Virus record (IMG/VR): IMGVR_UViG_3300030095_000973 | Span: 1-31,190 of that record | From: a virus | Taxonomy: Duplodnaviria > Caudoviricetes | DNA: 31,190 nucleotides | Direction: 5' to 3' (one strand) | The notes under the pieces: model-generated | Told to the model about the DNA's origin: nothing | What the model saw: only the letters and a program-made list of their open reading frames with translations | Databases searched by the model: none | Translations under genes and position numbers: made by a program | Part shown: in pieces, positions 9,653 to 31,190 of the stretch | Position numbering within the stretch: the stretch's first letter is position 1 | How the letters are laid out: each line of letters begins with the position of its first letter

Positions 9653-9676
9653 ATGTAACTATATAATAGTAAAATA
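9653..9676 (+). promoter_or_regulatory. Candidate phage promoter, copy 1 (ATGTAACTATATAATAGTAAAATA)
   Basis: Exact 24-bp match to 19467-19490. Intergenic, just after a terminator and 7 nt before the ATG at 9684. Contains TATAAT. Confidence 0.7.
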
Positions 9677-9683
9677 AAAAGAA

Positions 9684-10388
9684 ATGGCAGTAAACATAAA
9701 CAGGGTATATCAAAAGGTTTTAGCCTTGCTTAACAAAGAGCAAAGAGGCTATTTAACACCACAAGAATTTAACTTATTAGCAGATAGAGCTCAAAATGAA
9801 ATATATGAAGCTTATTTTCATAAAGCTAGAAACTCTAATGCTAAACTAAAAGATGACGATACGCATACAGATACTTTAGAAATGCTAGAGGCTAAGTTAT
9901 CTCCTTTTTTAAAATCAGAAACAAATACTAACGTTTCTAGTGGCGTAATGACGCTTCCAACAGATTTATATAAATTAGATATTGTAAAAATAGGAACTAA
10001 TCTTGCTACAGAGATAAATAAAAAAGAAGAACATTATATTACTTCTCTTGGTGAAACTGGTTCGGTATTATATCCTAAAACAGCAAGGCCTATATTTACT
10101 AGAGCATCATCTACAACAATTAGAATAACGCCATCACCTATTGATAGCGCTAGTTGCACTGTTAATTATTACAAAGAGCCGGCTACTCCAAATTGGGGTT
10201 ACGTTGTTGCTAATCAAAAAGCTTTATATAATGTTAATAATAGCACAAACTTTGAATTAGCGATATCAGAAGAGGAGCCATTAGTTTCAAAAATATTAAT
10301 GTTATCTGGCGTTGTAACAAAACAACAAGACATAGGTCAGGTTGGGGCAAACGCTATACAAATGACTAATCAAGAACAAAATAGTTAA
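9684..10388 (+). CDS. Head-tail adaptor / tail ring protein
   Basis: N-terminal helical pair (VYQKVLALLNKEQRGYLTPQEFNLLADRAQ), a TLPTDLY motif, a beta-rich middle and a C-terminal helix. This is the usual podovirus adaptor/ring layout, and the synteny agrees. Confidence 0.6.
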   Translation: MAVNINRVYQKVLALLNKEQRGYLTPQEFNLLADRAQNEIYEAYFHKARNSNAKLKDDDTHTDTLEMLEAKLSPFLKSETNTNVSSGVMTLPTDLYKLDIVKIGTNLATEINKKEEHYITSLGETGSVLYPKTARPIFTRASSTTIRITPSPIDSASCTVNYYKEPATPNWGYVVANQKALYNVNNSTNFELAISEEEPLVSKILMLSGVVTKQQDIGQVGANAIQMTNQEQNS

Positions 10389-11697: not shown

Positions 11698-14600
11698 ATG
11701 CCAGAGATTAAACGTACTTTTTCAAAAGCTAAAATGAACAAAGATCTCGATGAGAGAATTGTTCCTAATGGCGAATATAGAGACGCTATGAACATTCAGG
11801 TGTCTACATCTGATGCTGATGCTAGCACTGGTATAGGTAATGTTGGCGTTGTTCAAAATCTTCAAGGTAATAAAGAAATAAGAACTGTTACAAACGCTAC
11901 CGAAGGTTATGATAACGCTAAGTCTAAAATAATAGCTAGCGTTGCAGATGAAGGTAATAACAAAGCGTATTTTTTTACAGCGGCTCCAGTGCCAATAGAT
12001 GGTATAATTGAAGGAATAAGTCCAGCGGATATAACTAGTGAAAAACATTGGGTTGATAGTATAACTGAAGTAGAAGCTGTTGGGCAAGGTAATGATTGTA
12101 AATTTATATTTGTAGACAAGTTTGCTGTTACTAGCACAATGGCGCAAGCGGTAGATCAAACAGTTTCTTTAGTTACAGGTGATAATTTTTCAAATGGTTA
12201 TACGCAGCTAGCAGTTTTAGATGGTACAAAGTATAGAGTTGGTATGCGAATATACGCGCAAAAAACCGACAATACTAATATGTTTTCAGATGGTGATAAC
12301 GAGTATGTTACAATAGTCGCTATAGTTGGAAATAACTTAATGCTTTCTACTGAACAAACAGCAAATTATACTTTAGCTAGCGTATTTAAATTTATTCACC
12401 CAGATAAAGTATTAGAGTTTAATTATTATAAAGGTGACGCATTTAATTCACTAAATTTAATTCCATCTGCTTCTATAAATATTTTAAATAATTTATTAAT
12501 GTGGTCTGATGGTGAACATGAGCCTAAAAAAATAAATATAGAAAGATGCGAAGCCGGAACAAACATAAACGATAATGATAATGACGGCAAAACTCAGACT
12601 AAGCTTTTTGTAAAAGATTGCAATGTAGATCAATTAGTAAATATAGACACGTTAGAATTTCTTGAGTTAAATTATGTTTCCTCAGATATTAAAAAAGAAA
12701 ACATAACAGTAATAAAAAAACCACCTATTCTGCCGCCTAATATTGAAATGAGCGTTAGTGATAGAGAGGGAGTAAGTAGTTTTCCTTTAACTGGTTATTC
12801 TTTTGTTGTAGACAATCCACCTGAAGCTGGAGATGAAAGGAATATTCTTTTCCCAGATATTATAAATTTTAGAGAAGGTGATATTTACACCTTTACAGCG
12901 GCTAATGCGTTAGAGCCAGTTACTATTAGAGGTCAAATAATTGATATAAGTCCTGATGATAATAATCCAAATCCAAATGAATGTATAGTAAGATTATTAT
13001 TTGTAGATAGTGATTTATCAACAGTTAATAATCCAACTTCTTGGGATGTTGAGTTAGAAACTAAAAGACCTTTTTTTGAAGCTAAATTCGGTAGGTTTGG
13101 ATATAGATATCAATATGAAGATAACGAATATTCTAGTTTTTCTCCTTGGTCTGAGCTAGCTTTTTTACCTGGCGAGTTTGAATATACACCTCAAAAGGGC
13201 TTTAATGAAGGAATGGCTAATTCGGTTAGAATTTTAAAAGTTAAAGACTTTTTACCTAACGTACACTCAAGGCCACTTGACGTAAAGTCAATAGATGTAT
13301 TGTGGAAAACAACAGACGATAGCAACGTGTATATAGTTAAAACTATAAAAAGAGGATTAGATCCTGAGTGGAAAGACATGATTGCTAATTTTAGTTTAAG
13401 TAACACAGGCAAGCTTGATATAACATCTGAAATGATATATAAAGTAGTAGAGGCTAATCAATTACTTAGAGCGTGGGATAATGTTCCAAGATATGCAAGA
13501 GCTCAAGGCATAACCGGCAATAGATTAGTATACGGAAACTATACGCAAGGATATCAAATGAAAGCTAATATTGGATTAAAAACTAATATAATTTCAGATG
13601 TAGTGCCTTTTCCAGATCCAAGAAAATCAGTTAAATCAATTAGAAATTATCAATTTGGTTTAGTATTAGGAGATAAATACGGTAGAGAAACTCCAGTAAT
13701 ATCAAGTGGATATAAAGATGAAAACGGAAATCTTATAGATGGCAGTATTAAAGTTGAGAAAAGTTTAGCAAGTTTTGCTAATAGGTTTAAAGTGCAGCCA
13801 AAATGGACTGAATCTAGTCCTTATTATATGAAGTGGATAGATTATATAAAGTATTATGTAAAAGAAACTTCTAACGAATATTATAATTTAGTATTAGATA
13901 GATGGTACAACGCTGGAGATGATAACATATGGTTATCATTTAATTCAGCTGATAGAAATAAAGTTAGCGAAGAAACATATCTAATATTAAAAAACGAACA
14001 TGGTAGTCAAAGAACTGTAGATGAAAAAGCTAGATATAAAATTATAGCAATAGAAAACGAAGCTCCTGATTTTATAAAAACAGTTAATAAAGATTTTCCT
14101 TTAGAAGAAATGGCGGCAAAGCATGTTTTTGGTTCTGACGGCAGTGGTAACGCACTTACACCTTCTGACGGACACCCAGATAATATAATATCAGATGGTA
14201 ACCCAGGGTCGCAAAGTGGTATTGATAGAATTTTACTAGCATCAGCTGAAGGAGATGATAATCCGTTTTTAGATTCTTTAGAGTTTAAGGGTATTCCAAA
14301 GCTTGCAATTGTTGGTACTTACACGGAAAATGGTGTTACGTACACAGCAACTAGCCCATTTAGACGTATTACTAGAATTATAAAAGGCGGTAGTAATGGT
14401 GGTGAATATGGTTTTGGTATAAACGAATCTTTTAGTTTATCTGACGTGTTTATGTACCAAAAAATACAAATACAACTACCGGACGCTAGCACTTTAGGTA
14501 CAGCATCTAACGCGACTACTAATAATTTAATAAAATACAATATTAAACTAAGAGACGCTGTTGTAGAAAACAAGCCAGAGTTTGATGGTAAATTTTTTGC

Positions 14601-17502
14601 AAAAATAGCTAAAGACAATGTTTTAGAAAATAAAGTTTTAGGTGATTCATTAGGCGAATACCAAACAATAAGTAGTTATCAAATAGGATATATAGCTGAT
14701 AACATAACTAATCCAGCTGAAAATGCAAATGAGTATGCTTCTGAAATGTCTTATGAAGACCAAACTTGGGATAGTTATAATGACAACGACGTGTTTACTA
14801 ATGCAGATATAGAAGGCACAACAAATGGTTTACCTAACTTTATAGCTAGTAGCGAAAATAACTCAGACTTTTGGACACTACTAGCTAACAACCCAAATAG
14901 ATCGGCTGAAATATTTATTGATCAAGCGCCTGCGTTTAGCGGCTTTAATATACGCTCGCAGACGCAAGACATGGGTAACAGTTTCAATATTGCAGACGAA
15001 GATATAATAAATACTGAGGGTGATATTAACCAAGCAAACTATCACCCACCAGGCTTAACAAACGGCGCTTTTACTGGAGGGCAAGGAATGGGGCAGATTG
15101 CTTTTTCTATTGTAGGACCAAACGGTTTTAGTGGTTCTAATTCTTATTTTAAAACTAAAATGATGACTCCTGGAACGTTATTTAGATTTGCTGACGATCC
15201 TAATCAAAGTGTTTATAGAATTTTTGGTGGAACCGAAACACAAGAAGGTAATGTTAAAGATTTCCCTTTTGAAATAACTGGTATTAAAAACTTTAATCCT
15301 GATGATGATGTAAATCAAGACCACGTAGATAGAACAACTATAATAACAAGGTTTTCAAGAGTAGCTAATGATAATAGTAACTCTGGAGAAGGATTAGATG
15401 AAATGATTTGGGATCCTAGAGGAACAGTTAAACATAATGGTGTAGGAAGTATGGCTATTGAACTTGTGCAAAGAGTTTCAGTTCAAAGTCTTTCTGAAAA
15501 TTCTATATCTACGTCAGCGGCTTGTTTTGAAACAGAGCCTAAAGAAGATGTTGGTTTAGATATATACTATGAAGTTACAGGTGGTATACCAACAAGATTA
15601 AATGAAAATAATATCATACAATATACTGGCGCTAATCAAATTGAAGAAAGAGCTGCTAAATTTTCTGTTGGCAATAGAAAAGTCACTGGCGTTACTAATA
15701 ACGAGGTGGTTAATTTAACAGGAGATCCTTACGTTTACAGTACTGGAATAACTGCTGTAAACATTCATAGAAGAGTTAACGGCGTACTACAGGCTTTAAA
15801 AACTATAATTGATAATAGTCTAACACCTCCTGAAAGTGATTGCGTATGCGCGGCTATAGATGACTACGTATCTTTTACACATCCTAATGGTTTAGTTACT
15901 AAATCTAGAGTAACTGATCACGGAAAAATGCAAGTGGGCTTATTAGCTAACGGTCCTGTAGTAGTGCCCTCAGATCGTTATACACTAACGGGTAGCGGTG
16001 TAAATAGTGATAATGCAAATATCGATCACTTTATTACTGTAAGCATCGGTGACTCTAATTATAGTAATTTAGAAGTTGGAATGCAAGTAACTGGAGACAA
16101 TGTCAAAGCTGGAACTTTTGTTAAAAGCATACAAGGTGCTTCGCTTAAAATAAATAAACCTTTAATAACAGCAGGTAGTTCTAGTTTTACATTTATTGAT
16201 ATAACTGGCACGTTTATAATAGATGACGAGGTTTGGAATTATCCAGTCGAACTACCATGGTTTAATTGTTATTCATTTGGTAATGGCGTTGAATCTGATA
16301 GAATAAGAGATGATTTTAACACACCTCAAATCGATAACGGTGTAAAAGCATCGTCTACATTTTTAGAATACGGAGAAGAAAATAAATCTAGTAGTATGAT
16401 ATATTCAGGTATATATAATTCTACCTCAAGCACGAATGGCTTGAATCAATTTAATATGGCTGAAAAAATAACTAAAGATTTAAATACTACTTATGGCTCT
16501 ATACAAGCTATAAAAGTTAGAGATAATGATGTTGTTGTTTTTGCAGAAGACAAAGTATTAAAAGTAATGTCAAGTGGTAAAGATGTTTTATTTAACGCCG
16601 GCGGAAAAAAACAATTAACAGCAACTGATTTAGTTTTAGGAAACTCAACACCTTTTGCTGGAGATTATGGTATATCTAAAAATCCAGAATCTTTAGCTAC
16701 AGACGCATACAGAATGTATTTTACTGATAAACAAAGAGGTGCCGTGTTAAGGCTTTCAGGTAATGGCATAACTCCTATATCTGATGTTGGTATGAAAGGT
16801 TACTTTAGAGAAAAATTAAAATATTATATTAATATGCCTGGATCGTTTGATGGCGTTAATGATGAATATAATCTTTCTTTACTTGACACGTCAAAATTTA
16901 CTAGCGCTGTAGATAAAACTATCTCATTTAATGAAAAATCAAAAGGTTGGATTAGCTTTAAATCGTTTGTACCATTAACAGCGGTTAGTGTTGCTGACAG
17001 GTATTATTCAGTTAAAAATAATAAAATTTATGAGCACTATGATGACAGCGCTAATAGGAATACTTTTTACGGAAGCTTTACTGAATCTAGTGTAGATGTA
17101 TTATTTAATGAGTCACCAGGCTCTGTTAAATCTTTTAAAGCTGTAAACTATGAAGGCACTCAAAGTAAAGTTAATCAATCTACAGGGGAAAGCGTAGACG
17201 ATGTAAGTTATAACGATGAAGAGTATTATAACTTAAATCCAAATATTACAGGTTGGTATGTTGACTTAATAACAACAAATAAACAAACTGGTAACGTTCC
17301 TGAGTTTATTGAAAAAGAAGGTAAATGGTTTAATTACATTAAAGGCGAAGCAAGCTACTGGACTAACTCTTCTAATAATAATATAGATACTAGCGAGTTT
17401 TCAGTACAAGGTATAGGTTTTCCTTTAATAAATCCAACAGATACACAGACAGAAAGTGAAGTAACAACACAAGCAACAGATCCTGACGGAGAAAATTTAT
17501 AA
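11698..17502 (+). CDS. Tail nozzle/muzzle (stabilization) protein, P22 gp10 / T7 gp12-like, enlarged by insertions
   Basis: 1934 aa, beta-rich. N-terminal MNKDLDER...EYRDAMNI. C-terminal propeller-like motifs YGSIQ, DYGISKNPES, YFTDKQRGAVLRL, ISDVGM and GWISF. Position after the ring proteins. Confidence 0.72.
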   Translation: MPEIKRTFSKAKMNKDLDERIVPNGEYRDAMNIQVSTSDADASTGIGNVGVVQNLQGNKEIRTVTNATEGYDNAKSKIIASVADEGNNKAYFFTAAPVPIDGIIEGISPADITSEKHWVDSITEVEAVGQGNDCKFIFVDKFAVTSTMAQAVDQTVSLVTGDNFSNGYTQLAVLDGTKYRVGMRIYAQKTDNTNMFSDGDNEYVTIVAIVGNNLMLSTEQTANYTLASVFKFIHPDKVLEFNYYKGDAFNSLNLIPSASINILNNLLMWSDGEHEPKKINIERCEAGTNINDNDNDGKTQTKLFVKDCNVDQLVNIDTLEFLELNYVSSDIKKENITVIKKPPILPPNIEMSVSDREGVSSFPLTGYSFVVDNPPEAGDERNILFPDIINFREGDIYTFTAANALEPVTIRGQIIDISPDDNNPNPNECIVRLLFVDSDLSTVNNPTSWDVELETKRPFFEAKFGRFGYRYQYEDNEYSSFSPWSELAFLPGEFEYTPQKGFNEGMANSVRILKVKDFLPNVHSRPLDVKSIDVLWKTTDDSNVYIVKTIKRGLDPEWKDMIANFSLSNTGKLDITSEMIYKVVEANQLLRAWDNVPRYARAQGITGNRLVYGNYTQGYQMKANIGLKTNIISDVVPFPDPRKSVKSIRNYQFGLVLGDKYGRETPVISSGYKDENGNLIDGSIKVEKSLASFANRFKVQPKWTESSPYYMKWIDYIKYYVKETSNEYYNLVLDRWYNAGDDNIWLSFNSADRNKVSEETYLILKNEHGSQRTVDEKARYKIIAIENEAPDFIKTVNKDFPLEEMAAKHVFGSDGSGNALTPSDGHPDNIISDGNPGSQSGIDRILLASAEGDDNPFLDSLEFKGIPKLAIVGTYTENGVTYTATSPFRRITRIIKGGSNGGEYGFGINESFSLSDVFMYQKIQIQLPDASTLGTASNATTNNLIKYNIKLRDAVVENKPEFDGKFFAKIAKDNVLENKVLGDSLGEYQTISSYQIGYIADNITNPAENANEYASEMSYEDQTWDSYNDNDVFTNADIEGTTNGLPNFIASSENNSDFWTLLANNPNRSAEIFIDQAPAFSGFNIRSQTQDMGNSFNIADEDIINTEGDINQANYHPPGLTNGAFTGGQGMGQIAFSIVGPNGFSGSNSYFKTKMMTPGTLFRFADDPNQSVYRIFGGTETQEGNVKDFPFEITGIKNFNPDDDVNQDHVDRTTIITRFSRVANDNSNSGEGLDEMIWDPRGTVKHNGVGSMAIELVQRVSVQSLSENSISTSAACFETEPKEDVGLDIYYEVTGGIPTRLNENNIIQYTGANQIEERAAKFSVGNRKVTGVTNNEVVNLTGDPYVYSTGITAVNIHRRVNGVLQALKTIIDNSLTPPESDCVCAAIDDYVSFTHPNGLVTKSRVTDHGKMQVGLLANGPVVVPSDRYTLTGSGVNSDNANIDHFITVSIGDSNYSNLEVGMQVTGDNVKAGTFVKSIQGASLKINKPLITAGSSSFTFIDITGTFIIDDEVWNYPVELPWFNCYSFGNGVESDRIRDDFNTPQIDNGVKASSTFLEYGEENKSSSMIYSGIYNSTSSTNGLNQFNMAEKITKDLNTTYGSIQAIKVRDNDVVVFAEDKVLKVMSSGKDVLFNAGGKKQLTATDLVLGNSTPFAGDYGISKNPESLATDAYRMYFTDKQRGAVLRLSGNGITPISDVGMKGYFREKLKYYINMPGSFDGVNDEYNLSLLDTSKFTSAVDKTISFNEKSKGWISFKSFVPLTAVSVADRYYSVKNNKIYEHYDDSANRNTFYGSFTESSVDVLFNESPGSVKSFKAVNYEGTQSKVNQSTGESVDDVSYNDEEYYNLNPNITGWYVDLITTNKQTGNVPEFIEKEGKWFNYIKGEASYWTNSSNNNIDTSEFSVQGIGFPLINPTDTQTESEVTTQATDPDGENL

Positions 17503-19466: not shown

Positions 19467-19490
19467 ATGTAACTATATAATAGTAAAATA
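19467..19490 (+). promoter_or_regulatory. Candidate phage promoter, copy 2 (ATGTAACTATATAATAGTAAAATA)
   Basis: Exact 24-bp match to 9653-9676. Intergenic, 6 nt before the ATG at 19497. Confidence 0.7.
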
Positions 19491-19496
19491 GCAATT

Positions 19497-20195
19497 ATGT
19501 CATATATTAAAAAAAATACAGAAAGCCCGTTAAAAATATTTCAAGCCATTGGTGGTTTGGTTGGTGGTATATATGGTGGTATACAAGCTGGTAAAGCTGC
19601 TAAAAAAGCAGATAAGGCCGCTAAAAAAGCATCAGCTGAAAAAGCTAGAATGCAAGAAATACTTTCAAATGTAGATACTAGTAATCCGTTTCAAGGCATG
19701 ACTAATCCATATGCTGGTTTAGAAAACACACAAGAAGACTTAACTGTTAATCAACAAGAGGCTGATTTCCAAGCTCAACAGTTTGCGCAAAGCCAAGCTA
19801 ATATAATGGAAGGATTAAGAGGTTCTGCTGGTAGTAGTGGGATCGCAGCTTTAGCTCAATCATTGGCAAAGCAAGGTTCATTATCTGCTCAAAAATCTTC
19901 TGCTAGCATAGGTAAGCAAGAAGCGGCAAATCAAGCAGCGGCGGCAAGAGAAGCTGGTAGATTACAATCACAAGAAGCTAAAGGTGACTTTGATGTAGCT
20001 CAACAAGTAGCGCAAGGAGAGGCATCTTCTCAACAAAGAGAATTAACAAAACAAAAAACTTTATATGATGCCGCTCAACAAGATGCTACTAACGCAACCA
20101 CTGCGGCAACAAACGCACAAGCGTCAAAAGATCAAGCTTGGTCTGGAGCTATATCAAGTGGGGTAAATGTTCTTGGTGGTTTAATTGGAGGTTAA
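19497..20195 (+). CDS. Putative ejection/pilot (internal virion) protein
   Basis: Gly-rich apolar ends (IFQAIGGLVGGIYGGIQAG; WSGAISSGVNVLGGLIGG) around an Ala/Gln-rich helical core. First of three genes of increasing size after the tail genes, as with P22 gp7/gp20/gp16 and T7 gp14/15/16. Confidence 0.65.
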   Translation: MSYIKKNTESPLKIFQAIGGLVGGIYGGIQAGKAAKKADKAAKKASAEKARMQEILSNVDTSNPFQGMTNPYAGLENTQEDLTVNQQEADFQAQQFAQSQANIMEGLRGSAGSSGIAALAQSLAKQGSLSAQKSSASIGKQEAANQAAAAREAGRLQSQEAKGDFDVAQQVAQGEASSQQRELTKQKTLYDAAQQDATNATTAATNAQASKDQAWSGAISSGVNVLGGLIGG

Positions 20196-20213: not shown

Positions 20214-21176
20214 ATGGAAGAAGAATACGTACCACAAAGTCAACAGCCAGTAGAGCAGGCGGCGCCTCAAGCTGTACCTAACGAAAACGAAATGTTTTTA
20301 AAATTAATGAATGAAGAGTTAAATAGAGATCCTAAAGTTACAACGCAAGAAAGAGAAGATCTTACAAACAAAACTCTAGAATTAAAAAAAGATTTTTCTA
20401 ATGGTGACAAAAATGAACAAGCTAATATACAACAACAAACTGTAGAAATGGCTCAAATGATGACCGTGCCAGAAGAGTTTAAGAAAAAAATAGCAGAAAC
20501 ATTAACTGATAGTGAAAACTTTGGTCATAATCCCGTTGAAAAATTAGGACCTATGGCTAATGATATTATAAATATAATAAATGGAGGCAGTCAACCTATT
20601 TTTAAAGACAAAGTTCCAGGTTATGAAATGAGTGATGGCAAGTGGATGTCTATGGAAGATATTACTGACATGGTAAACAGTATGAAGCTAGATCAAGGTA
20701 GCAAAGAAGGCATGAAAGTATTAATGAATGACGTTGTTAGAAAAGCTGAAGATGTGCAGCCAGGTGACGATCCTAGTTTTAATTACCAAAAAGAATATAA
20801 CAACATCAAAGAAAAAATTGTAGAAACCGGTAATCTAGCGTCATTATCAATGGACAAAATATTTGGTAATAGAACATTTAAAGATGATTTAATATCTGCT
20901 ATACAAAAAGGTACTTATACTGATATGGGAATACCTGAGGCTCAAGTTCAAGATCCTACACCTGAAGATGGTAGAATAACATCTGAAGACGCTAAAATTA
21001 TATCAGGCATGATTATGCAAGATGAAACCATGCTAAAAGATTACTTAGCAGAATATTTTACTAAAGCACTAGAGCAAAATTATAATAATAATTTAAGCCC
21101 TGCCTCAAGAAGAAATATGCAAACGAACCAAACAAAACCACAAGCCGTAAATCAAGATTATAATTCAAATAAATAA
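20214..21176 (+). CDS. Putative second ejection/internal virion protein (acidic, Met-rich, 320 aa)
   Basis: ORF track. Helical composition. Located between the pilot-like gene and the giant ORF. Confidence 0.5.
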   Translation: MEEEYVPQSQQPVEQAAPQAVPNENEMFLKLMNEELNRDPKVTTQEREDLTNKTLELKKDFSNGDKNEQANIQQQTVEMAQMMTVPEEFKKKIAETLTDSENFGHNPVEKLGPMANDIINIINGGSQPIFKDKVPGYEMSDGKWMSMEDITDMVNSMKLDQGSKEGMKVLMNDVVRKAEDVQPGDDPSFNYQKEYNNIKEKIVETGNLASLSMDKIFGNRTFKDDLISAIQKGTYTDMGIPEAQVQDPTPEDGRITSEDAKIISGMIMQDETMLKDYLAEYFTKALEQNYNNNLSPASRRNMQTNQTKPQAVNQDYNSNK

Positions 21177-21215: not shown

Positions 21216-24200
21216 ATGGACACTAAAATATATATGGTCGATGATCAGCCTCATGAGGTATCATCTGATCAAGAATCACAATTTTTAAAAAACAATCCTA
21301 GCGCAACTTTACAAAGTAAAGAAAGCAATAATTCCAAATCGGAAAAAGATCCAAACAATTTATTTATTAACGAAAAATCATTCAAACCTGTCAATACTGA
21401 CGTGTCATATTATTTTCATAGAGATCAAAATAATTGGCATAGATTTGATCCTAAAACTGGTGATGATAAAGTTGTAGCAACTGGCTATGAGCAAGACGAC
21501 GCTTCGTCAGAGCTTAATGTTGCTATGAATGCGGACAGTGAATCTAACGTTGATTACAACTTCCATGACAATCCTATGGATCCAAAAAAAGATTTATATT
21601 CTTTTCATGACCCAGATTATAGTAAAAGATTTGAAGATGATAAAAATCACAAAAAATCTCTTAATCAAAAATCAAAAGTTAAAAAGAAAAAACCAACATC
21701 TACTCCTAAAGAAAAACCTGGCGAAACAACACCTTTAATGCTTATGCCTGAAAATAATTTTACTGGACCAAGCATAGATGTTGACAGCACACCAGATCAA
21801 GTTTTAGATTATAATAATGCGCCTGAGTGGTTTAACAATAGATCATCACACCAATTATGGCCTGATAACGAAAAGTATAGCGAACAAGTTTACGAAGCTG
21901 TAATGAACGGTACTCATGGTTTTAATCCTAAAACTGGAAAGCTAGTATTGCTTGATGAACCAATAAAAATAGATCCAGCTATAAAAGAAATATCTGTAAA
22001 ATCGTTATACGAGAAAAAAAATTCAGAAAAACTTGATGAACGTTCTAAGAACGGTGACCCAGCTGTAGGCGAAGGTGATTTAGAATTAAGCGATGCTGAA
22101 CTAGCTGATTTAGAAGCCAAAGAGTCTATGCCTGAAATAACTCAAGAAAATTTACCAAGCTTTGAAGGAGACTTAAAAATACCTGGAGAGTTTTTGTACT
22201 CAGACACTGGACCTCAATTAGATGATATAATGATTAGAACTGGTGCAAAAACTTGGTTGCAAGAAAACTACGGGGAGTACGGATTTAAGTTTGAACAAGA
22301 TGGTAGATTTTTAAAACAAGGCGTTGTTGTCACAGCGTCTAATGGAGAAAAAAAAGAATTTGCTTTAGGTAATTCTAATGTTGCTGAAGAAATGGATAAG
22401 TGGATGAGAGCTAATGCTGTTAGCCCTATGTCTAGACTTAAAGTGGCTGACACGTTTGCAGATCAATACGTTGAGAAGAATGTACAAAACATACCGTCTG
22501 ATCTCAATAAGGCAATGAGAAAAATAAATAAAATAAGAGAACTATGGGGACTAGAAGGATATAGTAATGATCAAGTAAGAGATATTTATAAGAACTTTAA
22601 AGAAAACATGAATGAATCTGGACAAGGTCCTAAAAAATTTAATGTATTAAGAGAAATTACCACTCCTGCTTTTATTGAAAATCTTAGAAAAGAAGGTAAA
22701 AACGAACAAGCTGATTTTTATGAAAGAAGAGCTATTATGGATATGTATACTGGACACATGGACGAAAGTTACAGAACAATGGTTGACGGTAAGTTTATAA
22801 AAGATAGATCAACGCAAAATGAAAAAGATGGTAATATATTTGAAACTAAAAGATTAAAGGCGTTTGGTGTTGACAAATTTCTTGGTGTAGATAAAAATAA
22901 ACAATTAACTAACTTAGTTCAATTTGATTATAACGATCTTGCAGAAGATTTTGATTTAAATTCTATTGCTAATGCTGAAAAAGGTTATAAAGAATCAAAG
23001 GCCTTGCAAGAATATGAAAAATTAAAACAAGCCCAAAATAAAGATTTTAATTTATTTTCTGGGTCAGATGAAGAGATAAAATCTAAAATAGAACAAGCTA
23101 AAAAAGATCCTGAATATTTAAAATTATATCAAAACTTAAAATTAGATAATGATGAATTATCTAAGTATATATTAAAACAACATAAAAGAGACGCAACAAA
23201 TAAATATTATAATAAAGGCGTAGAAGAATACGCTAAAACATTAGATTCTGGCATATGGTTTGATAAAAGCTTATTGTCAAAAGAAGTCAAAAATGAAGCG
23301 GATCTTATGAGCAAAGAGCTTATAAAAAATACCAGCGAGCGCCGCGTGAACAATGATGAATACCAAACTAAAGTAAATAAATATGAAGAAATTGGTAATA
23401 AGTTAAATACATTTAATAATACATACAAAGAAGAATTAAAAAATAAAAAAATAGAATACAATATTGACAGCGAAAAAAAACAAAAAGAAGTTGTTAATAA
23501 TATTAAAAATGATGTAGAAAAATTAGCGCCTAAAATAAAAGAAAAATATAAATTTAGAACTGACAAAGATTTTGAGCTAGTTCAAAATAATATTCAAAAA
23601 AGAATAAAAAATGTAGTTGATAAAGAATTAAAAAGAATTAAAAGCAGTAATGAGTTTGATTTAAGTACTGAAGAAGGCGTTGCTTTAGCAAATAAAAAAA
23701 TTGAAGAAATACAAAAATTAGAAATAGAAAAAGGAGAAAAAGAAATAAACTTAATTAATGAAGAAGAAAAAAAGAAGTATGATGATTATAATAAAGAAAT
23801 TAACGGTATACTTAATTCAAAAATTAAAAAGTACGAAAACGATCAAAACTCTAAAATAAATAAAATGAATGAAGATCCGTTTTTTACGGATTATAAAGAC
23901 GACGTGGCGGCTTTTAATATATTAAAAAATGAATTACAACCAACAGATGAGGAAGGTAATCCAGTAAAAAATAAATATGTATTATTAGATGAGAAGCTAG
24001 AAAAAGATTTAGCAGGAATTGATATGTCTGAAGATGAGCTTAACGCTATAACTTCTGCTGTTGGTAAAAACTATGATTTTGGAACTAGGCTAAGTTATGA
24101 ACTTATGCATGCCGCTATAGATTTAGGTCAAGGCGTTATGAATGTTGGTGATATGTTTATGGCTGCACCAAAACAAATATTAGATGATATTAGAAAGCGA

Positions 24201-27200
24201 GATCCAGTATTTGACGCTTGGTGTAAGACTTCTAAACTTACAGTAGGAAATGCTACTTTTAAAATTAGAGATAAAGATGATGACTTTAGACCTATTGAAC
24301 AATTTAGTAATAAAATAGATAAGTGGCAAGAAAAAACTAGAGAAAATTATTCAAGATTAATACAGTATGATGAAATAGAGGGAGCAACTGATTTTGGTGA
24401 ATGGTGCCTTGGGACTATGGTTACTCAATTACCTCAGTTAGCATTAATGTATGCTACTGGTGGTTCGTCATTATATATACTAGGTGCTTCTAGTGCTGGC
24501 TCTAAGTTTGATGAAATGAATCAACAGTTGAGGCAATTTGAAAGAACTAATGGCCAACATGGTCAAGAGTTTACTTTTGCGGAAATGTTTTTAAATGCTT
24601 CGTTTACTGGATTTATGGAGGCAGCTTCAGAAAGTATAACGCTTGGGCAAATTAACAAATTAAAAGCCATGATGGGCAGTCAGTGGAAGCTTGGTTTCGC
24701 TAATGGTCTTAGAAAAAATGTTTTTAGTCTTAAGGGTCTCAAAAACAATACTAATATATTTTTAAGAGAAGGATTTGAAGAGGGCTTTTCTGAAAGTATA
24801 GCTCAGATATCTAGTAATTTTGCGGACATAGCAAGTGGTGATAAAGACGCAACTATGTGGGAAGGCGTATCAGAATCATTCGCTAGTGGTTGGGTTATAA
24901 GCACGGGTATAAAAATTCCATCTCTTGGAAAAAAATTAAGAGCTCCTTTTATACCAAAAGACGCAAATCAAAGATTAGGTGAAATAAGTGATAGAATACA
25001 AGACTTAACAAAGCAAGCTGGTAATTCTAAAAATGCTGAGGATATAGGTAGAATAGAAACTGAAATAGCAGAACTAACTTTTGAAAGTGGAGAGATAATA
25101 CAAAACACAGCTAACAGAGTAGATCTCATACAAAGTAAAAATCCACAAGATATAAAAGCTTTAATTAATATTGAAAAGAAAACTTACGATTTACGTAAAA
25201 AATCTGAAGAGATACAGCTAAATGATAAGTTATCGCCTGAGCAAAAGCAAGTTGAATTAAATAAATTATTAGAAAAAAGAGCTGAGTACTTTATTCAAAA
25301 AGATAATATATTAAAAAAATATAGACCAGAGGACGTTCAAAAGTTCACTAAAGAAAGAACGCAGACGTACGAAGAAATAGCTAACATGGCTGAACAACAC
25401 GGCGCTCCAAAAGTAAATATTAAAGAAGTAAACAAAGATGAGTTTGCAGAAAGAGAGTCTAAGTACGATCAAAATAAATCTAAAAAACAAATTGAAGATA
25501 TTTCTTTATATAATAAAGGTTTAACTCAAGGTCTTCAAAATATTATTAAAGACAAAAACTCAACAAAGCAAGAGATTAAAGAAGCTAAAGAAGCTTTAAA
25601 GAAAGCAGAAACTCAAATAAGAATAGCTGACAATATATTAAATGCAGATGATTATGGAGTAATGCAGCCAAAGTTTGATAAAAATGGTAACATAGAATCT
25701 ATGGACATTTTAATAAACAAAGACGCTGTTAATAAAGATGGTAAGTTTAATACCGCTGCACATGAATTTATACATGCTACTTTTGCTAACACTTTAAAGT
25801 TTGATCCTGCTATGAGGGAGATAGCTGGTGGAGCTTTAAATAAAATAATAAATGGCAAAGGTATTGAGTTTGCTCCAGGCATGGCTGAGGTTTTTAATAA
25901 AAGAGTCGCTCAATATCCTCCTAGCAAACAAGGTGAAGAAGGTTTAGCTATATTGTCAGAGATGATGTTAGACAACCAAGTAAAGCTTACTGATAGTGTA
26001 GCAGGTAAATTTGGTAATGTATTTAGAAGATATACTCAAAACGTTAAAGGTTACGATATAGAGTTTAATACCCCAAATGATATTAGAAACTTTTTAAAAG
26101 ACTATAATTACTCTATAAAAAATAATAAACCTAGCCCAGCAATAGCTAAAATGTTAGCTAAGGGAGCTAATGGTAAAATGTTTGAAGACGCTAGGACTCC
26201 AGATGAAATAAAAAGACAAGACGCTCACAGTAGGTCAGTAAAACAAAACATGCAGTCAAACCCTGATTTAAAGCCGGCCTTTGATAATCTTGTTCAAGTT
26301 GAAAATGGTAATTCTAAATTTAAAAATAACGACGATTTTAAAACATCACCTGAGTTTCATGAAGGTTATAGTAAGATAGTTGATAGTCAATTATTAGACG
26401 GTTTAATAAAACAAGGCATGACTGAAAGAGGTTTACCACCAGAGGCCTTACGAGATTTTACTAGAAAAGTTAAAGAAGAATTAGGTCTTAGATATTTAAA
26501 TAATTATGATATATCTAAGAATGATAGTTTATTTGGCTGGTTAACAGGAGTTTCTGGAGGTGCTGGAAAATCTATTATATATAGAGCTAAAGGTGATGTA
26601 ATAAATCAATATGTAAAAGAAGGTAAAGCCGATGATGTTTCTATAGATAAACAAATTGGAGAAGTTGGAACGTTAGCTGATGTTTTACAAGCAGAAACGG
26701 ATTCTTTAATAGACCAAATAGATAACGCTGACATGACTCCAACTAAAAAGCGTGATTTAAAAAACAATATTGAAGATTTAAAAATGGTAATGGAAGTTTT
26801 AAACTTGCCAGAAAACACTAAAAAATCTATAATAGATGCAGTAAATTCAGCTGATGTTAATTTAAAAGGCTTATCATACAAAGGTATACGTGATTTATTA
26901 TTATCTACACAAACTAAAGCTACAACAGAAAAAAAGGTAACGCCAACAGGGCCATTGTTTGGAGTATTAAATGCAATAGCTGCAGAGTTTGGTATTGATC
27001 CATTAAGAATACTTGCAAAACAAGATTTAAGTTCTGAACAAAGAAAGTTAGCTCAACAATATATATTAAAAAAAGCTATTAATGAAGATGGTAGCTTTAA
27101 TAAAGATATATTAGAAATGCTACCAGATGGCCAAGATAGAAGTGGTAAAGCTACTGGTGTAGCTAATACAAAACTTGGTGAGTTTTATACTAAAGGTAAA

Positions 27201-30200
27201 AGAGCTAAAATGAGTGAAGGTGCCACTGGCGCTGGCTTAGCTACTCAAACAAAAAGAACTGACGTAAGTAAAGATCAATTTTTAAATTTATTTGGTATAA
27301 ATCCTGATGGCTCTTTTCAGCCAGGTAGAAAAGCTGATGGTGCTATAAGAGAACTTGTAACACAAATAGCAACATTAACAGCTAATCAACAAATAAGATT
27401 AAACGCTGTGCAAAATTCTTTAGCAGCTGAATCTGAAATAGCAGTACTTAGAGATGGTATGTCTGAAAAAATGTACAATAAAAAAGTACAAGAAGATGGA
27501 GCTGATATAGAAACTTTGTCTGTAATTCCTGATAAGTATGAAAATAAAAACAACTTTGTTCAAGTTAAAGCTACTAAAGGTGGCCAAACAGATGCCACTA
27601 CTGGTACTACTGTAGTAGAGGGTGAATTTGGTGAGTTTGATATGATAGACTTGGATGCTGATCACATAAATAAAATAACTGGAGAACCAAGTGGATTAAC
27701 ACAAGGTGAGTATATATTAAAGTCTGGAAAAGCTATAATAAAAGCTGATCCTAGAATGTGGCAAATAATGTATTATACTATGACTGGCAGCGTTAAGCGA
27801 CAAAGCCTAATGACTAAAGAAAATTTTATTGAAACGTTTGGCAAAGATCCTTATAATGCTAAAAAACACGGACCGCCTTTAAATATACCAAGAATAAAGT
27901 ATACTAAAAAACAAAAAGACGGCGCTAAAGTTCCAGTGCAAGATAAATCTGTTTTACAAAACTTTAATGAAAACGATTATAAAAATAAAATACCAACATT
28001 AATAAAATCATTTAAAGTTATTGAAAAGGTATTAGATACAGTTAATGGGAATCCTGAGTACGCTGATTTTGTTGCTCAACTTATATCTGATACAGTTAAT
28101 AACACAGCTTATGGTATAACTAGAATATCAGCCCCAACCTACTTTGCTCTTATAGATCCTGTTACTGGCAAAGTTGACTACGTAACTCAAGTAGTAGAAG
28201 AGCACGCTGCTCCACAAAAAAAGTTAGTTGCTAATGTATTATTTAATGCTGCTAGACTTGGAATAGTAGATTCTGTAGCTCCACTAATAGAGTCTTATTT
28301 TAAACAAGGTTCTTTAGCTCATATTGATGACGTTTTAGTAAACCAAAATTTTGGTCAAGACATGCCTAGAGATTTTTATGACAATGCTCTGCCAATGTTA
28401 AAGGACGGTACATATCCTAGTGATTTAAAAGACTTATCATTTTTAATTAGATATGTTCAGCCTCACAAAATAAAAAATGCAGAAAAAACTGGTTTTCCAA
28501 AAGACAGCACTCAATATATTGATATGAATAAATATGTTGTTTTAGCAGGCATACATAAAGGAAAAACATTTGCAGAAGCATTAGGTGTTGGTATGAAGGG
28601 TAAGGTATCTAAAAAAATTATAGAGATTCAAAACAATTTAATGAGCCAAGTATTAAATGGCCAAATAACAAAAGAAGCTGCTAGCGAAACATTTAAAAAA
28701 TTAGTTCCTAAAAGTGTTAATTCGTATTATAAAAATTTAGAAGACAACGAAATAGCTATTAACAATAAACTTAATTTACAAAATCAATTAAGAGAGTCTG
28801 AAAATAAATATTCTAGTAAAAGCAAAGTTGAAGTTAAAGGTGCTTCTGTTTTTGACTTTGATGACACTTTAGGAATAACTAAGTCTGGCGTTAGAGTTAG
28901 AGTGCCTAACGTTGATGGAGATCCTAAACCAAGTCGTAAGGTTGTATTTTTAGCAGGTGGCGCGGGTAGTGGTAAATCTAACGTAGTTAGAAAATTAAAA
29001 CTAGAAGGGCAAGGATTTAAAATTGTAAACTCTGATATATCATTAGAGTGGCTAAAGAAAAACTCAGGCTTACCTGCTGATATGCAAGACTTGACTAAAG
29101 AACAGAGAAGTACATTAGGTAGATTAGGCGCTGAGTCTAGAAAAATAGCTAAACGTAAAATGATGAAATACCAAGGTGATGCCAACGGTGTTGTTGTTGA
29201 TGGCACAGGCGGTTCAGCTAAACAAATGCAAAAATTAGTTAAAGAGTTTCAAGACAAAGGATATGACGTTAGCATGATGTTTGTTGAGACTTCTTTAGAA
29301 ACAGCATTAGAAAGAAATAGAAATAGAAAAGAAAGAACTTTATTAGATACTATAGTTAGACGTAATCATGACGCTGTTCAGGGTAATAAAGATGGTTTTA
29401 AAAAATTATTTGGTAATAACTTTATGGAAGTTAATACTGATAATATGACATTAAAAGATAGTGTACCTAAAGAGCTAGCAGCTAAGATGAATAATTTTGT
29501 AAGTGGTTATGAAAAACTTAGATTAGACGCTACAGAGTTTGCTGAGCATGGTGACAGTATATTAGAGAAAGGAGGAGAGTTTGATTTTACAGAGTTTGAT
29601 CAAGTAGTAGAAGGAAGACCTGGCCCTTTATTAGACAAGGCAAAGCAAAGAGCTGCGAAATATGGAACTAAAGATATATTTGTTTTAACCGCTAGAACTC
29701 AAAAATCAGCTAAAGCAATACAACAATTTTTAAAATCACAAGGCTTAAATATACCATTACAAAATATTACGGGATTAGCTAATAGCACGGGTGATGCTAA
29801 AGCTCAATGGATGTTAGAAAAATACGCTGAAGGTTATAACGATATGTATTTTGCTGATGATGCTTTACAAAACGTTGAAGCTGTTAAAGAAGTATTAGAT
29901 CAACTTGATATTAAATCAGATGTTGTTCAAGCTAAATTAAATCAAAATAATACTTTAGTAGATAATAGTGATGCTATGAAAAGTAAAGTTATTGAGCCTA
30001 GTGTTGATAATACTATTAATGAAGAGTTTAATAAAATACTTGAGCGTAAAAAAGGTATACCTGCTGTAAAAGTAGTATCTGAGGCTGAATCAAGAAGAAG
30101 AGGATCTCAAACTAATATTGCTAGATTTTTTAAAAGCCTTTACATACCGCCATCAGCAGAGGATTTTAAAGGATTAATGTATTACTTTGTAGGTAAAGGA

Positions 30201-31190
30201 AAACAAGGTGATGCTGATTTAAAATGGTTTAAAGAAAAGTTATTTGACCCGTTTGCTAAAGGTATAAGATCATGGAATGCTTATAAGCAGAATATGGTTA
30301 ATGAATATCAAGCGTTAAAAAAGACATTTCCTAAAGTTAGTAAATCTTTAAACAAGTTAATTCCTGGAACAATATTTACAAATGATACTGCCATAAGAGC
30401 GTATTTATTTGATAAAGCTGGATATGATGTTCCTGGTTTAAACCAAGCTGAAAAAAAGCAGTTAATAGATCACGTTAAAAATGATCCTAGTATTCAAGGG
30501 TTTGCTGATGCATTATCGACTATAACTCGTTCTAAAGAAGGATACCCTGCTCCTAATGCAAATTGGGCTGTTAGCTCTATACCAGGAGATATGAACAGCC
30601 TTGTAAATAAAGTTGGTAGAAAACAATTTTTACAAGAGTGGATAAACCAAAAGAATAATATTTTTAATAAAGATAATTTAAATAAAATACGAGCTGTATA
30701 TGGTAACCAGTTTTTTGAATCTTTAAATAATATATTATATCGTATGGAAAACGGTGGTAATAGATTAGTAAGTCCTGATAGCACTGTAAATGGTTTTGTT
30801 TCTTGGATAAATGGTTCTGTCGGTGCTATAATGTTTTTTAACATGAGATCTGCTTTACTTCAAACTATATCTACAGTTAACTTTATAAACTGGAGTGATA
30901 ATAATATATTTAAAGCGTCTGCGGCATTTGCTAATCAACCACAGTTTTGGAAAGACTTTGTAGCGCTGTTTAACTCTGATCAGTTAAAGCAAAGAAGAAA
31001 AGGGCTACAAACTGACGTATCAGCATCGGAATTAACTAAAGCTTTTGCTGAAAGAAAAATGACTCCAGCTTCTGTTGTCAGTTATTTATTATCAAAAGGT
31101 TTTACGCCTACGCAATTAGCGGACAGCTTTGCTATTGCTTTTGGTGGTGCTAGTTTTTATAGAAACAGATTTAAAAAATATATTAAAGAA
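21216..31190 (+). CDS. Giant multidomain (polyvalent) putative ejection protein, at least 3325 aa, truncated by the window end
   Basis: The ATG at 21216 gives MDTKIYMVDDQPHEVSS..., and the frame reads ...FGGASFYRNRFKKYIKE at 31190. I found no stop in the segments I translated. The absence of any long + strand ORF here in the track fits a frame with no stop codon. Confidence 0.9.
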   Translation, partial: MDTKIYMVDDQPHEVSSDQESQFLKNNPSATLQSKESNNSKSEKDPNNLFINEKSFKPVNTDVSYYFHRDQNNWHRFDPKTGDDKVVATGYEQDDASSELNVAMNADSESNVDYNFHDNPMDPKKDLYSFHDPDYSKRFEDDKNHKKSLNQKSKVKKKKPTSTPKEKPGETTPLMLMPENNFTGPSIDVDSTPDQVLDYNNAPEWFNNRSSHQLWPDNEKYSEQVYEAVMNGTHGFNPKTGKLVLLDEPIKIDPAIKEISVKSLYEKKNSEKLDERSKNGDPAVGEGDLELSDAELADLEAKESMPEITQENLPSFEGDLKIPGEFLYSDTGPQLDDIMIRTGAKTWLQENYGEYGFKFEQDGRFLKQGVVVTASNGEKKEFALGNSNVAEEMDKWMRANAVSPMSRLKVADTFADQYVEKNVQNIPSDLNKAMRKINKIRELWGLEGYSNDQVRDIYKNFKENMNESGQGPKKFNVLREITTPAFIENLRKEGKNEQADFYERRAIMDMYTGHMDESYRTMVDGKFIKDRSTQNEKDGNIFETKRLKAFGVDKFLGVDKNKQLTNLVQFDYNDLAEDFDLNSIANAEKGYKESKALQEYEKLKQAQNKDFNLFSGSDEEIKSKIEQAKKDPEYLKLYQNLKLDNDELSKYILKQHKRDATNKYYNKGVEEYAKTLDSGIWFDKSLLSKEVKNEADLMSKELIKNTSERRVNNDEYQTKVNKYEEIGNKLNTFNNTYKEELKNKKIEYNIDSEKKQKEVVNNIKNDVEKLAPKIKEKYKFRTDKDFELVQNNIQKRIKNVVDKELKRIKSSNEFDLSTEEGVALANKKIEEIQKLEIEKGEKEINLINEEEKKKYDDYNKEINGILNSKIKKYENDQNSKINKMNEDPFFTDYKDDVAAFNILKNELQPTDEEGNPVKNKYVLLDEKLEKDLAGIDMSEDELNAITSAVGKNYDFGTRLSYELMHAAIDLGQGVMNVGDMFMAAPKQILDDIRKRDPVFDAWCKTSKLTVGNATFKIRDKDDDFRPIEQFSNKIDKWQEKTRENYSRLIQYDEIEGATDFGEWCLGTMVTQLPQLALMYATGGSSLYILGASSAGSKFDEMNQQLRQFERTNGQHGQEFTFAEMFLNASFTGFMEAASESITLGQINKLKAMMGSQWKLGFANGLRKNVFSLKGLKNNTNIFLREGFEEGFSESIAQISSNFADIASGDKDATMWEGVSESFASGWVISTGIKIPSLGKKLRAPFIPKDANQRLGEISDRIQDLTKQAGNSKNAEDIGRIETEIAELTFESGEIIQNTANRVDLIQSKNPQDIKALINIEKKTYDLRKKSEEIQLNDKLSPEQKQVELNKLLEKRAEYFIQKDNILKKYRPEDVQKFTKERTQTYEEIANMAEQHGAPKVNIKEVNKDEFAERESKYDQNKSKKQIEDISLYNKGLTQGLQNIIKDKNSTKQEIKEAKEALKKAETQIRIADNILNADDYGVMQPKFDKNGNIESMDILINKDAVNKDGKFNTAAHEFIHATFANTLKFDPAMREIAGGALNKIINGKGIEFAPGMAEVFNKRVAQYPPSKQGEEGLAILSEMMLDNQVKLTDSVAGKFGNVFRRYTQNVKGYDIEFNTPNDIRNFLKDYNYSIKNNKPSPAIAKMLAKGANGKMFEDARTPDEIKRQDAHSRSVKQNMQSNPDLKPAFDNLVQVENGNSKFKNNDDFKTSPEFHEGYSKIVDSQLLDGLIKQGMTERGLPPEALRDFTRKVKEELGLRYLNNYDISKNDSLFGWLTGVSGGAGKSIIYRAKGDVINQYVKEGKADDVSIDKQIGEVGTLADVLQAETDSLIDQIDNADMTPTKKRDLKNNIEDLKMVMEVLNLPENTKKSIIDAVNSADVNLKGLSYKGIRDLLLSTQTKATTEKKVTPTGPLFGVLNAIAAEFGIDPLRILAKQDLSSEQRKLAQQYILKKAINEDGSFNKDILEMLPDGQDRSGKATGVANTKLGEFYTKGKRAKMSEGATGAGLATQTKRTDVSKDQFLNLFGINPDGSFQPGRKADGAIRELVTQIATLTANQQIRLNAVQNSLAAESEIAVLRDGMSEKMYNKKVQEDGADIETLSVIPDKYENKNNFVQVKATKGGQTDATTGTTVVEGEFGEFDMIDLDADHINKITGEPSGLTQGEYILKSGKAIIKADPRMWQIMYYTMTGSVKRQSLMTKENFIETFGKDPYNAKKHGPPLNIPRIKYTKKQKDGAKVPVQDKSVLQNFNENDYKNKIPTLIKSFKVIEKVLDTVNGNPEYADFVAQLISDTVNNTAYGITRISAPTYFALIDPVTGKVDYVTQVVEEHAAPQKKLVANVLFNAARLGIVDSVAPLIESYFKQGSLAHIDDVLVNQNFGQDMPRDFYDNALPMLKDGTYPSDLKDLSFLIRYVQPHKIKNAEKTGFPKDSTQYIDMNKYVVLAGIHKGKTFAEALGVGMKGKVSKKIIEIQNNLMSQVLNGQITKEAASETFKKLVPKSVNSYYKNLEDNEIAINNKLNLQNQLRESENKYSSKSKVEVKGASVFDFDDTLGITKSGVRVRVPNVDGDPKPSRKVVFLAGGAGSGKSNVVRKLKLEGQGFKIVNSDISLEWLKKNSGLPADMQDLTKEQRSTLGRLGAESRKIAKRKMMKYQGDANGVVVDGTGGSAKQMQKLVKEFQDKGYDVSMMFVETSLETALERNRNRKERTLLDTIVRRNHDAVQGNKDGFKKLFGNNFMEVNTDNMTLKDSVPKELAAKMNNFVSGYEKLRLDATEFAEHGDSILEKGGEFDFTEFDQVVEGRPGPLLDKAKQRAAKYGTKDIFVLTARTQKSAKAIQQFLKSQGLNIPLQNITGLANSTGDAKAQWMLEKYAEGYNDMYFADDALQNVEAVKEVLDQLDIKSDVVQAKLNQNNTLVDNSDAMKSKVIEPSVDNTINEEFNKILERKKGIPAVKVVSEAESRRRGSQTNIARFFKSLYIPPSAEDFKGLMYYFVGKGKQGDADLKWFKEKLFDPFAKGIRSWNAYKQNMVNEYQALKKTFPKVSKSLNKLIPGTIFTNDTAIRAYLFDKAGYDVPGLNQAEKKQLIDHVKNDPSIQGFADALSTITRSKEGYPAPNANWAVSSIPGDMNSLVNKVGRKQFLQEWINQKNNIFNKDNLNKIRAVYGNQFFESLNNILYRMENGGNRLVSPDSTVNGFVSWINGSVGAIMFFNMRSALLQTISTVNFINWSDNNIFKASAAFANQPQFWKDFVALFNSDQLKQRRKGLQTDVSASELTKAFAERKMTPASVVSYLLSKGFTPTQLADSFAIAFGGASFYRNRFKKYIKE
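25640..26120 (+). other. Zincin-like metallopeptidase domain within the giant ORF
   Basis: YGVM...DIFINKD...NTAAHEFIH (HExxH at 25761-25775) and a downstream GEEGLA (EE at 25935-25940) as the candidate third ligand. Confidence 0.8.
26340..26940 (+). other. Sigma70-like domain within the giant ORF
   Basis: YLNNYDISKNDSLFGWL (region 2.3-like), VSIDKQIGEVGTLADVL (region 3.2-like) and LNLPENTKKSII...GLSYKGIRDLL (region 4-like), in the correct order. Confidence 0.55.
28836..29935 (+). other. HAD-superfamily phosphatase domain (interrupted) within the giant ORF
   Basis: Motif I VFDFDDTL (DFDDT at 28854-28868), motif II FVLTAR (29679-29696), motif III Lys (29799) and motif IV YFADDALQN (DD at 29856-29861). 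Confidence 0.85.
28935..29505 (+). other. P-loop kinase domain (polynucleotide kinase / zeta-toxin-like) nested in the HAD domain
   Basis: VVFLAGGAGSGKS (Walker A at 28956-28979), IVNSD, VVVDGTG, GYDVSMMFVETSLETALERNRNR (lid RxxxR). Confidence 0.85.

Follow-up and report, generated by a model that had tools for sequence, protein, structure and literature searches.

Two kinds of described proteins are among the closest to the one analysed here. The first are the polyvalent proteins of phages (Iyer et al., 2017; PMC5512222), giant products of late loci that combine a metallopeptidase of the HExxH-plus-Glu type with LPD38/39 tail regions and zeta/PNK-like kinases, and for which a passage of that paper proposes self-processing. 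The second are two proteins of isolated phages, gp101 of Cellulophaga phage phi38:1 (Pervagoviridae; 1691 aa) and gp74 of Tenacibaculum phage Gundel_1 (Pachyviridae; 2482 aa). Part of PMC8776804 describes Gundel and Calle, the latter a congener of phi38:1, as podoviruses infecting flavobacteria, and phi38:1-related phages are placed among the most abundant viral groups of the ocean in a section of PMC7198788.

The giant protein described below resembles the polyvalent proteins in these respects (its tail being tentatively LPD38/39-like and its self-processing likewise a proposal) and adds a predicted sigma-70 domain 2 (sigma-2), a Glu-His domain and a HAD phosphatase with a nested kinase. Iyer et al. 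(2017) mention neither 'sigma', 'polynucleotide kinase' and 'Cellulophaga' nor a HAD domain in their main text. With phi38:1 gp101 and Gundel_1 gp74 it has in common the place after the tail block, a Gly/Ala module and a Cys-free body, and with gp74 also the C-terminal region and HExxH, whereas the giant's own profiles detect no sigma-2, Glu-His, HAD or kinase domain in either protein, gp74 showing a weak GNAT match instead. Judged by its sequence, the giant is a further member of the phage polyvalent ejection proteins, with unrelated effector domains in one polypeptide, a zincin MPTase and a late locus. The modular build proposed in the preliminary description of this DNA was borne out, in that the surveyed homologues gain and lose domains.

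The window, i.e. the whole stretch of DNA analysed, comprises the 31,190 nt of a linear virus contig that is 58% complete. Its positions 21216..31190 (+) form a single frame of 9975 nt, or 3325 codons, that is free of stops and contains no N. This frame is open at the 3' end of the contig and for that reason is absent from a track of closed ORFs, as had been noticed for a frame of at least 3325 codons. A 3688-aa homologue (P0002) aligns with residues 7-3325 of the query at ~90% identity, so ~370 aa are missing from the window copy, whose full length would be ~3690 aa, and the frame is unbroken and not a chimera; in-frame stops and assembly chimerism, both raised earlier as possible faults, were thus looked for and not found. 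The giant was indeed unannotated, but it is no rarity: its marine family is very large, with at least 2324 protein clusters (those at E ≤ 0.001 when 7999 candidates were scored with query residues 950-3325), and the C-terminal query led to 80 viral loci. Removal of close copies left 139 of 191 giants, 2034-4501 aa long, a sample biased to proteins with the C-terminal half because both queries contained that half. The giant gene lies in two frames in L008 (795-7685 and 7613-12436) and L075 (5866-9876 and 9851-12061), which may be either natural splits or assembly errors. Only two of the 3325 residues of the giant body are Cys, the family median being 0. Despite this Cys-free body, 87 of the 139 giants have at least four Cys within the last 160 aa, and zinc-finger-like Cys/His repeats are common at the ends of the giants (e.g. 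the last 80 aa of P0002 and residues 3998-4032 of P0049), with DUF5763 in some of them.

The N-terminus (aa 1-330; 21216..22205, +) is rich in D, S, K, P, E and N, is poorly conserved (up to aa 350, coverage is found in at most 18 of the 120 homologues listed) and is probably disordered, in agreement with the preliminary description. It is followed by a K/E/N-rich segment (aa 580-945; 22953..24050, +) with ~25% identity among homologues, where the reported composition was confirmed and a coiled coil is probable from that composition. Next comes a Gly/Ala-rich helical module (aa 1040-1260; 24333..24995, +), recognized by tblastn and by its own HMM in phi38:1 gp101 (E 3e-39) and Gundel_1 gp74 (E 1e-43) and likely to be an ejection scaffold. 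The helices earlier called apolar are indeed G/A/S-rich (aa 1062-1235) but not strongly hydrophobic, as no 19-residue window there exceeded 1.2. At the other end, the helical C-terminal region (30093..31190, +), which runs off the contig, proved conserved and common to Gundel_1 gp74 (E 2e-13), and is tentatively LPD38/39-like. By Atlas features, it scored 0.95 against a cluster in which 28% have LPD39 and 0.93 against one in which 88% have LPD38, both below the recognition threshold, and no Pfam match to an LPD-type domain was found on the giant.

The zincin-like metallopeptidase (25653..26165, +) contains the HExxH motif noticed earlier at aa ~1516 (H1516, E1517 and H1520), followed by E1575. 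An alignment of 43 sequences has H1516 and E1575 throughout, with E1517 and H1520 each kept in at least 90%, and HExxH is retained in 121 of the 125 non-redundant homologues that have the domain. These ligands agree with the definition of MPTases (HExxH and a later Glu) in the relevant part of Iyer et al. (2017; PMC5512222). The domain is likely to be an active protease. A linker tripeptide (Phe/Tyr, Ser, Lys/Arg/Leu) recurs at four module junctions, in 59/125, 51/94, 43/123 and 65/126 proteins against 8.4, 3.3, 4.9 and 7.1 expected from random windows, a 7- to 15-fold enrichment exactly at the module borders. Such a motif could mark sites at which the giant is cut by its own zincin, a reading that we place just short of evenly balanced. 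Its main competitor, which we regard as a serious possibility, is that the giant stays uncut, as one tethered ejectosome subunit like the virion RNA polymerase (vRNAP) of N4, the tripeptide being a folding or threading signal. N4 vRNAP and ArdC carry an MPTase yet travel uncut, N4 vRNAP being packaged in that state, whereas P1 DdrB is processed, according to passages of PMC5512222. The four junctions of the window's own giant show degenerate linker forms only; Gundel_1 gp74 has a zincin and few linker motifs, and phi38:1 gp101 lacks HExxH, all of which fits an uncut protein, whereas the enrichment at the borders and the precedent of DdrB argue for cleavage. With a fixed linker motif at hand, the long-proposed self-processing of polyvalent proteins becomes testable.

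Downstream of the zincin, aa 1685-1810 (26268..26645, +) are predicted to adopt a sigma-70 domain-2 fold, followed by a short region-3.2-like Ser-x-Asp motif. The AlphaFold model of aa 1685-2095, built from 55 sequences, has a mean pLDDT of 84 and consists of two well-predicted lobes with a loose linker between them. When it was compared with 48,161 chains by VIA, the top 26 rows were all sigma factors (Z 5.4-6.7, with matches on model residues 1-129), superimposing with an rmsd mostly of ~3 Å (2.4-5.2) over 72-97 residues. These Z values lie under the tool's caution level for helical bundles; nevertheless, the uniform run of sigma factors obtained with this model is unlike the outcome for a generic bundle (compare the VIA result for the Glu-His domain below), although Z is modest. 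Sequence profiles gave less: Pfam Sigma70_r2 was found weakly in three of 31 members (best E 0.0017), with in-frame matches in three giants, the window's own domain had no Pfam match, Foldseek against PDB returned nothing at E ≤ 0.001 for the sigma-region model, and a PDB profile search with the sigma alignment gave nothing significant. An iterated profile located sigma-2 in 121 of the 139 non-redundant giants. The segment corresponding to region 2.3 is the best-kept part of the embedded domain, in which the tryptophan pair of that region is missing. No match to sigma region 4 was obtained for model residues beyond 125, residues that the VIA search barely tested. Of the sigma-like module assigned earlier to aa ~1710-1900, domain 2 (~1685-1810) and the short finger-like motif stand, and a full sigma factor over 1710-1900 does not.

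The second lobe is a conserved, well-predicted domain (aa 1905-2090; 26928..27485, +) without a known match, its profile having found nothing significant in PDB. A reading of aa 1915-1950 as DnaA-IV-like, made by eye, was dropped as no search supported it. Neither the query nor full-length P0002 had an RNA_pol match in Pfam or PHROG, and PF00940 occurred in 0 of 12 near-complete relatives in a scan whose positive controls gave no signal; a very diverged polymerase in the giant is excluded by family scans and lack of room only. The analogy with the injected polymerases of crAss-like phages and N4 is therefore not carried over here, no polymerase domain having been detected. Sigma-2 would, more probably than not, grip the core of the host RNA polymerase.

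Relatives of the window phage carry a repeated early motif, YACAAAnTAAATACGA-N8-RGATAATA, with 2-11 copies in 13 of 15 contigs: the four from which the matrix was derived have 7, 11, 7 and 8, a fifth has 2, and eight of ten others have 4-10 (e.g. G012:60444-65816 and G015:14926-21280). The two motif-free contigs are also without the separate sigma gene described below and probably without the early arm. No copies were found in shuffles or in phi38:1. The window, which lacks the early arm, has 0 matches, and the promoter evidence is drawn from relatives. In G034, all six copies are a one-base variant of the motif. The motif often stands 6 nt before a start codon: a frame of at least 40 codons begins exactly 6 nt past GATAAT at 18 of 84 sites, other offsets accounting for at most four. 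This spacing fits a -10 element and a leaderless mRNA. The motif resembles the sigma-28 consensus; the housekeeping -10 consensus of Bacteroidota is TAnnTTTG, which the -10 part of the early motif does not fit.

A separate sigma-70-type gene of ~253 aa is found in the early/replication arm of 12 of 50 relative records (L083-L092, L095 and L096; e.g. G015:13640-14404, minus strand), with 67% mean column identity. Its own profile did not find it in phi38:1, and no similarity was detectable between the embedded sigma-2 and this separate phage sigma. In all ten contigs that have both, a copy of the early motif stands on the same strand, 0.5-3 kb upstream of the gene, which leaves room for an injected reader of that motif. 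phi38:1 has neither the early motif nor sigma-2 in gp101; since motif, separate sigma and embedded sigma-2 co-occur, this contrast cannot separate them. An attempt to find the motif where sigma-2 is absent failed, as two giants missed by the profile (L040 and L068) show sigma-2-like stretches by eye.

It is conceivable, if rather doubtful, that the modelled sigma-2 helps to fire the early promoters at a stage when no phage gene has yet been expressed. Possible, too, is that the injected domain is a decoy on the sigma-binding face of the polymerase, or a relic, and that the host or separate phage sigma reads the early promoters. The early motif is nearly invariant while the embedded sigma-2 diverges much faster, down to 15-34% identity; its mean is 34% where the kinase, HAD and tail of the same 25 proteins reach 69-78%. 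This disparity favours a decoy or relic, as do the missing region 4 match and tryptophan pair and the presence of a conserved, complete sigma gene in 12 of the 50 relative records. Conversely, that gene itself follows the early motif in 10/10 contigs with both, the -10 element is unlike TAnnTTTG, and the residues of region 2.3 are the best kept in the embedded domain, all of which speaks against a decoy or relic. The probability left by these two readings goes to mixed roles.

The HAD phosphatase (28839..29915, +) has its motif I at D2547/D2549 and motifs II-IV after an insert, the latter being an optional ~200-aa P-loop kinase of the PNK/zeta type in the HAD cap (aa ~2570-2750; 28923..29465, +). 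Both motifs and profile matches bear out the earlier assignment of a HAD with nested kinase to aa ~2540-2900. Motif I is present in 125/126 domains and motifs II and IV in 126/126 each, and the Lys is invariant. Motifs I and II are separated by ~78 residues without the kinase and by 277 with it, so that the kinase is one discrete insert. Among the 139 giants, 71 have the HAD only, 53 the nested kinase, 11 neither, two the HAD followed by the kinase and two the kinase only; the presence or absence of the nested kinase can serve as a naturally occurring test of how cargo is exchanged. Profile matches of the HAD are to DUF2608 and, in 23 of 30 members, to a PHROG family named 'polynucleotide kinase'; HAD and tail profiles found nothing significant in PDB. 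For the kinase, the Pfam matches were AAA_33 (E 4e-12) and Zeta_toxin (E 1e-8, above cut-off), and the best PDB matches were kinase domains of bacterial Pnkp (E 3e-5), followed by zeta (chain 1gvn, E 9e-4) and adenylate kinases. Gly replaces Ser/Thr after the P-loop Lys in 23 of 57 kinases. More cargo variation, in the form of a second kinase or long extra inserts, was seen in P0119 (2754-2886 and 3543-3681), P0099 (~2400-2860) and L081.

For what had been called 'phospho-editing', a likely healing of polynucleotide ends is the better reading, the rival being a small-molecule kinase of zeta type. Our best reading, at even odds, is that kinase and phosphatase repair broken ends of RNA or DNA in the manner of T4 Pnkp. 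That the kinase is of zeta type and acts on a cell-wall precursor or nucleotide, the HAD being a nucleotidase unrelated to end-healing, appears unlikely. Zeta_toxin scores above its cut-off and 1gvn is among the structural matches, 82 of 139 giants lack the kinase and a few others have it without a HAD, and zeta-like kinases have been reported in polyvalent proteins (Iyer et al., PMC5512222). Yet AAA_33, the Pnkp structures and the PHROG polynucleotide kinase family score better, and 55 of 57 kinases are inside the HAD or next to it, the best family match of the HAD being of PNK type as well.

Between the sigma region and the HAD lies the fast-diverging Glu-His domain (27693..28730, +; E2329, H2330 and R2412). 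The EHxxP segment seen earlier at aa ~2329 held up, E2329-H2330 being invariant in 24 sequences. The domain was recognized in 46 of 121 proteins at first and, after iteration, in 152 of 177 slots, with 25 slots unassigned; the idea that slot 2100-2500 is a swapped cassette was rejected as iteration showed one diverging domain in these 152 slots. In the model (pLDDT 92), the acid-His pair stands at the end of a strand (166-171), followed by a second strand (205-209) and a helix (210-220) with a conserved Asp, a strand-strand-helix order that would fit a His-Me finger nuclease. No His-Me finger family was among the matches of the structure and profile searches: Foldseek found nothing in PDB at E ≤ 0.001, BFVD yielded a family member only, VIA returned generic helical bundles only (Z ≤ 6.1), there was no Atlas match, and a PDB profile search found nothing significant. 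A search for stand-alone homologues produced six proteins, all of which resemble family fragments. The domain is a candidate nuclease, at odds that we consider even.

Upstream of the giant, terminase, portal, capsid and tail genes follow the order of phi38:1 gp090-gp101, and nine of the 13 window proteins tested match their phi38:1 counterparts at 23-38% identity, the head-tail proteins having 24-38% identity to this member of the Pervagoviridae. This kinship suggests that the host of the window phage is a member of the Flavobacteriaceae (compare a section of PMC7198788). A GroES-like ORF (PHROG 13932; 523-1110) overlaps the small gene before the terminase, and a 1934-aa tail protein (11698-17502) with a crAss muzzle C-terminal domain (PF25729) is ~600 aa longer than phi38:1 gp097. 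The last three genes encode proteins of 232, 320 and at least 3325 aa and occupy the places of gp099, gp100 and gp101, which is the small/middle/large order of the T7 gp14/15/16 type. By position, the Cys-free 232-aa ORF (19497..20195, +) and the Cys-free 320-aa ORF (20214..21176, +) are likely the small and middle ejection proteins; BLAST gave no match between the former and gp099, which itself weakly matches T7_gp14 (E 0.006). A 23-nt late-promoter-like element (19468..19490, +) stands directly before this cluster, and an identical copy (9654-9676) precedes a 234-aa tail gene at 9684. Elements of this type occur at the same places in five relatives (G001, G003, G012, G015 and G022), although a loose form of the pattern was, genome-wide, no commoner than in shuffles, and what is conserved is its position alone. 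Similar elements are also present after the giant gene and after the separate sigma gene.

The giant is encoded among late virion genes, as polyvalent proteins are, and the ejection-protein context proposed earlier is supported by its place as the last of three genes after the head-tail block, at the position of gp101. With this position and sequence, the giant is highly likely to be packaged in the virion and ejected. That it is a late cytoplasmic product that is never packaged is very improbable: the structural labels that phi38:1 gp101 and Gundel_1 gp74 both carry in GenBank derive from similarity notes, but position, the Cys-free body, the modules in common with these structural proteins of isolates and the likeness to T7 gp14 at the first gene of the cluster all stand against it.

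The explanation that we find best, and on balance probable, is that of a modular ejection polyprotein. In a phi38:1-like podovirus of flavobacteria, the giant would be the largest ejection protein out of three; its two conserved ends would form a conduit for DNA delivery, and its middle would carry the zincin, the predicted sigma-2, the Glu-His domain and the phosphatase with nested kinase into the host. Together with its DNA, such a phage may bring in a prepared set of tools for transcription and repair. A literature search, supplements aside, found no report of a virion-delivered sigma or of this giant, and the text of the phi38:1 transcriptome paper contains neither 'sigma' nor 'promoter' (PMC5335546). 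New are a conserved HAD in which a kinase is optionally nested, the presence of the Glu-His domain throughout the family, the linker counts and the layout of promoter and second sigma.

The boldest form of this explanation, which we hold tentatively and consider improbable as it stands, is that abundant marine phages start transcription with a virion-delivered sigma: cut at the linkers, sigma-2 and the next domain, replacing region 4, would direct the host core to a phage-specific early promoter that yields leaderless mRNAs, among them one for a second sigma serving later genes. To our knowledge, phage transcription starts with either the host holoenzyme or an injected polymerase, and an injected sigma domain, if true, would be a third way. 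This can be tested directly in vitro with the 410-aa module, the early motif and the gene of the separate sigma.

The comparison with characterized proteins is as follows. The N4 vRNAP, as presented in part of PMC5512222, is likewise a third ejection protein of ~3500 aa with a transcription function and a zincin. However, the virion RNA polymerases of N4 and crAss-like phages carry a polymerase, whereas the cargo of the giant is at most a sigma fragment that would need the host core; the giant would be at most a partial counterpart of the injected polymerase of N4. Compared with sigma-70 domain 2 (PF04542; SigR, 1h3l, and sigma32, 8hkc), its predicted four-helix core superimposes as described above and keeps the region 2.3 signature, but it lies inside a polyprotein, has no region 4 match and shares less than 20% identity with sigma-70 factors. 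Finally, T4-type and bacterial Pnkp also combine a P-loop kinase with a DxDxT HAD phosphatase, whereas in the giant the kinase is inserted in the HAD cap, is optional and belongs to a virion-type polyprotein.
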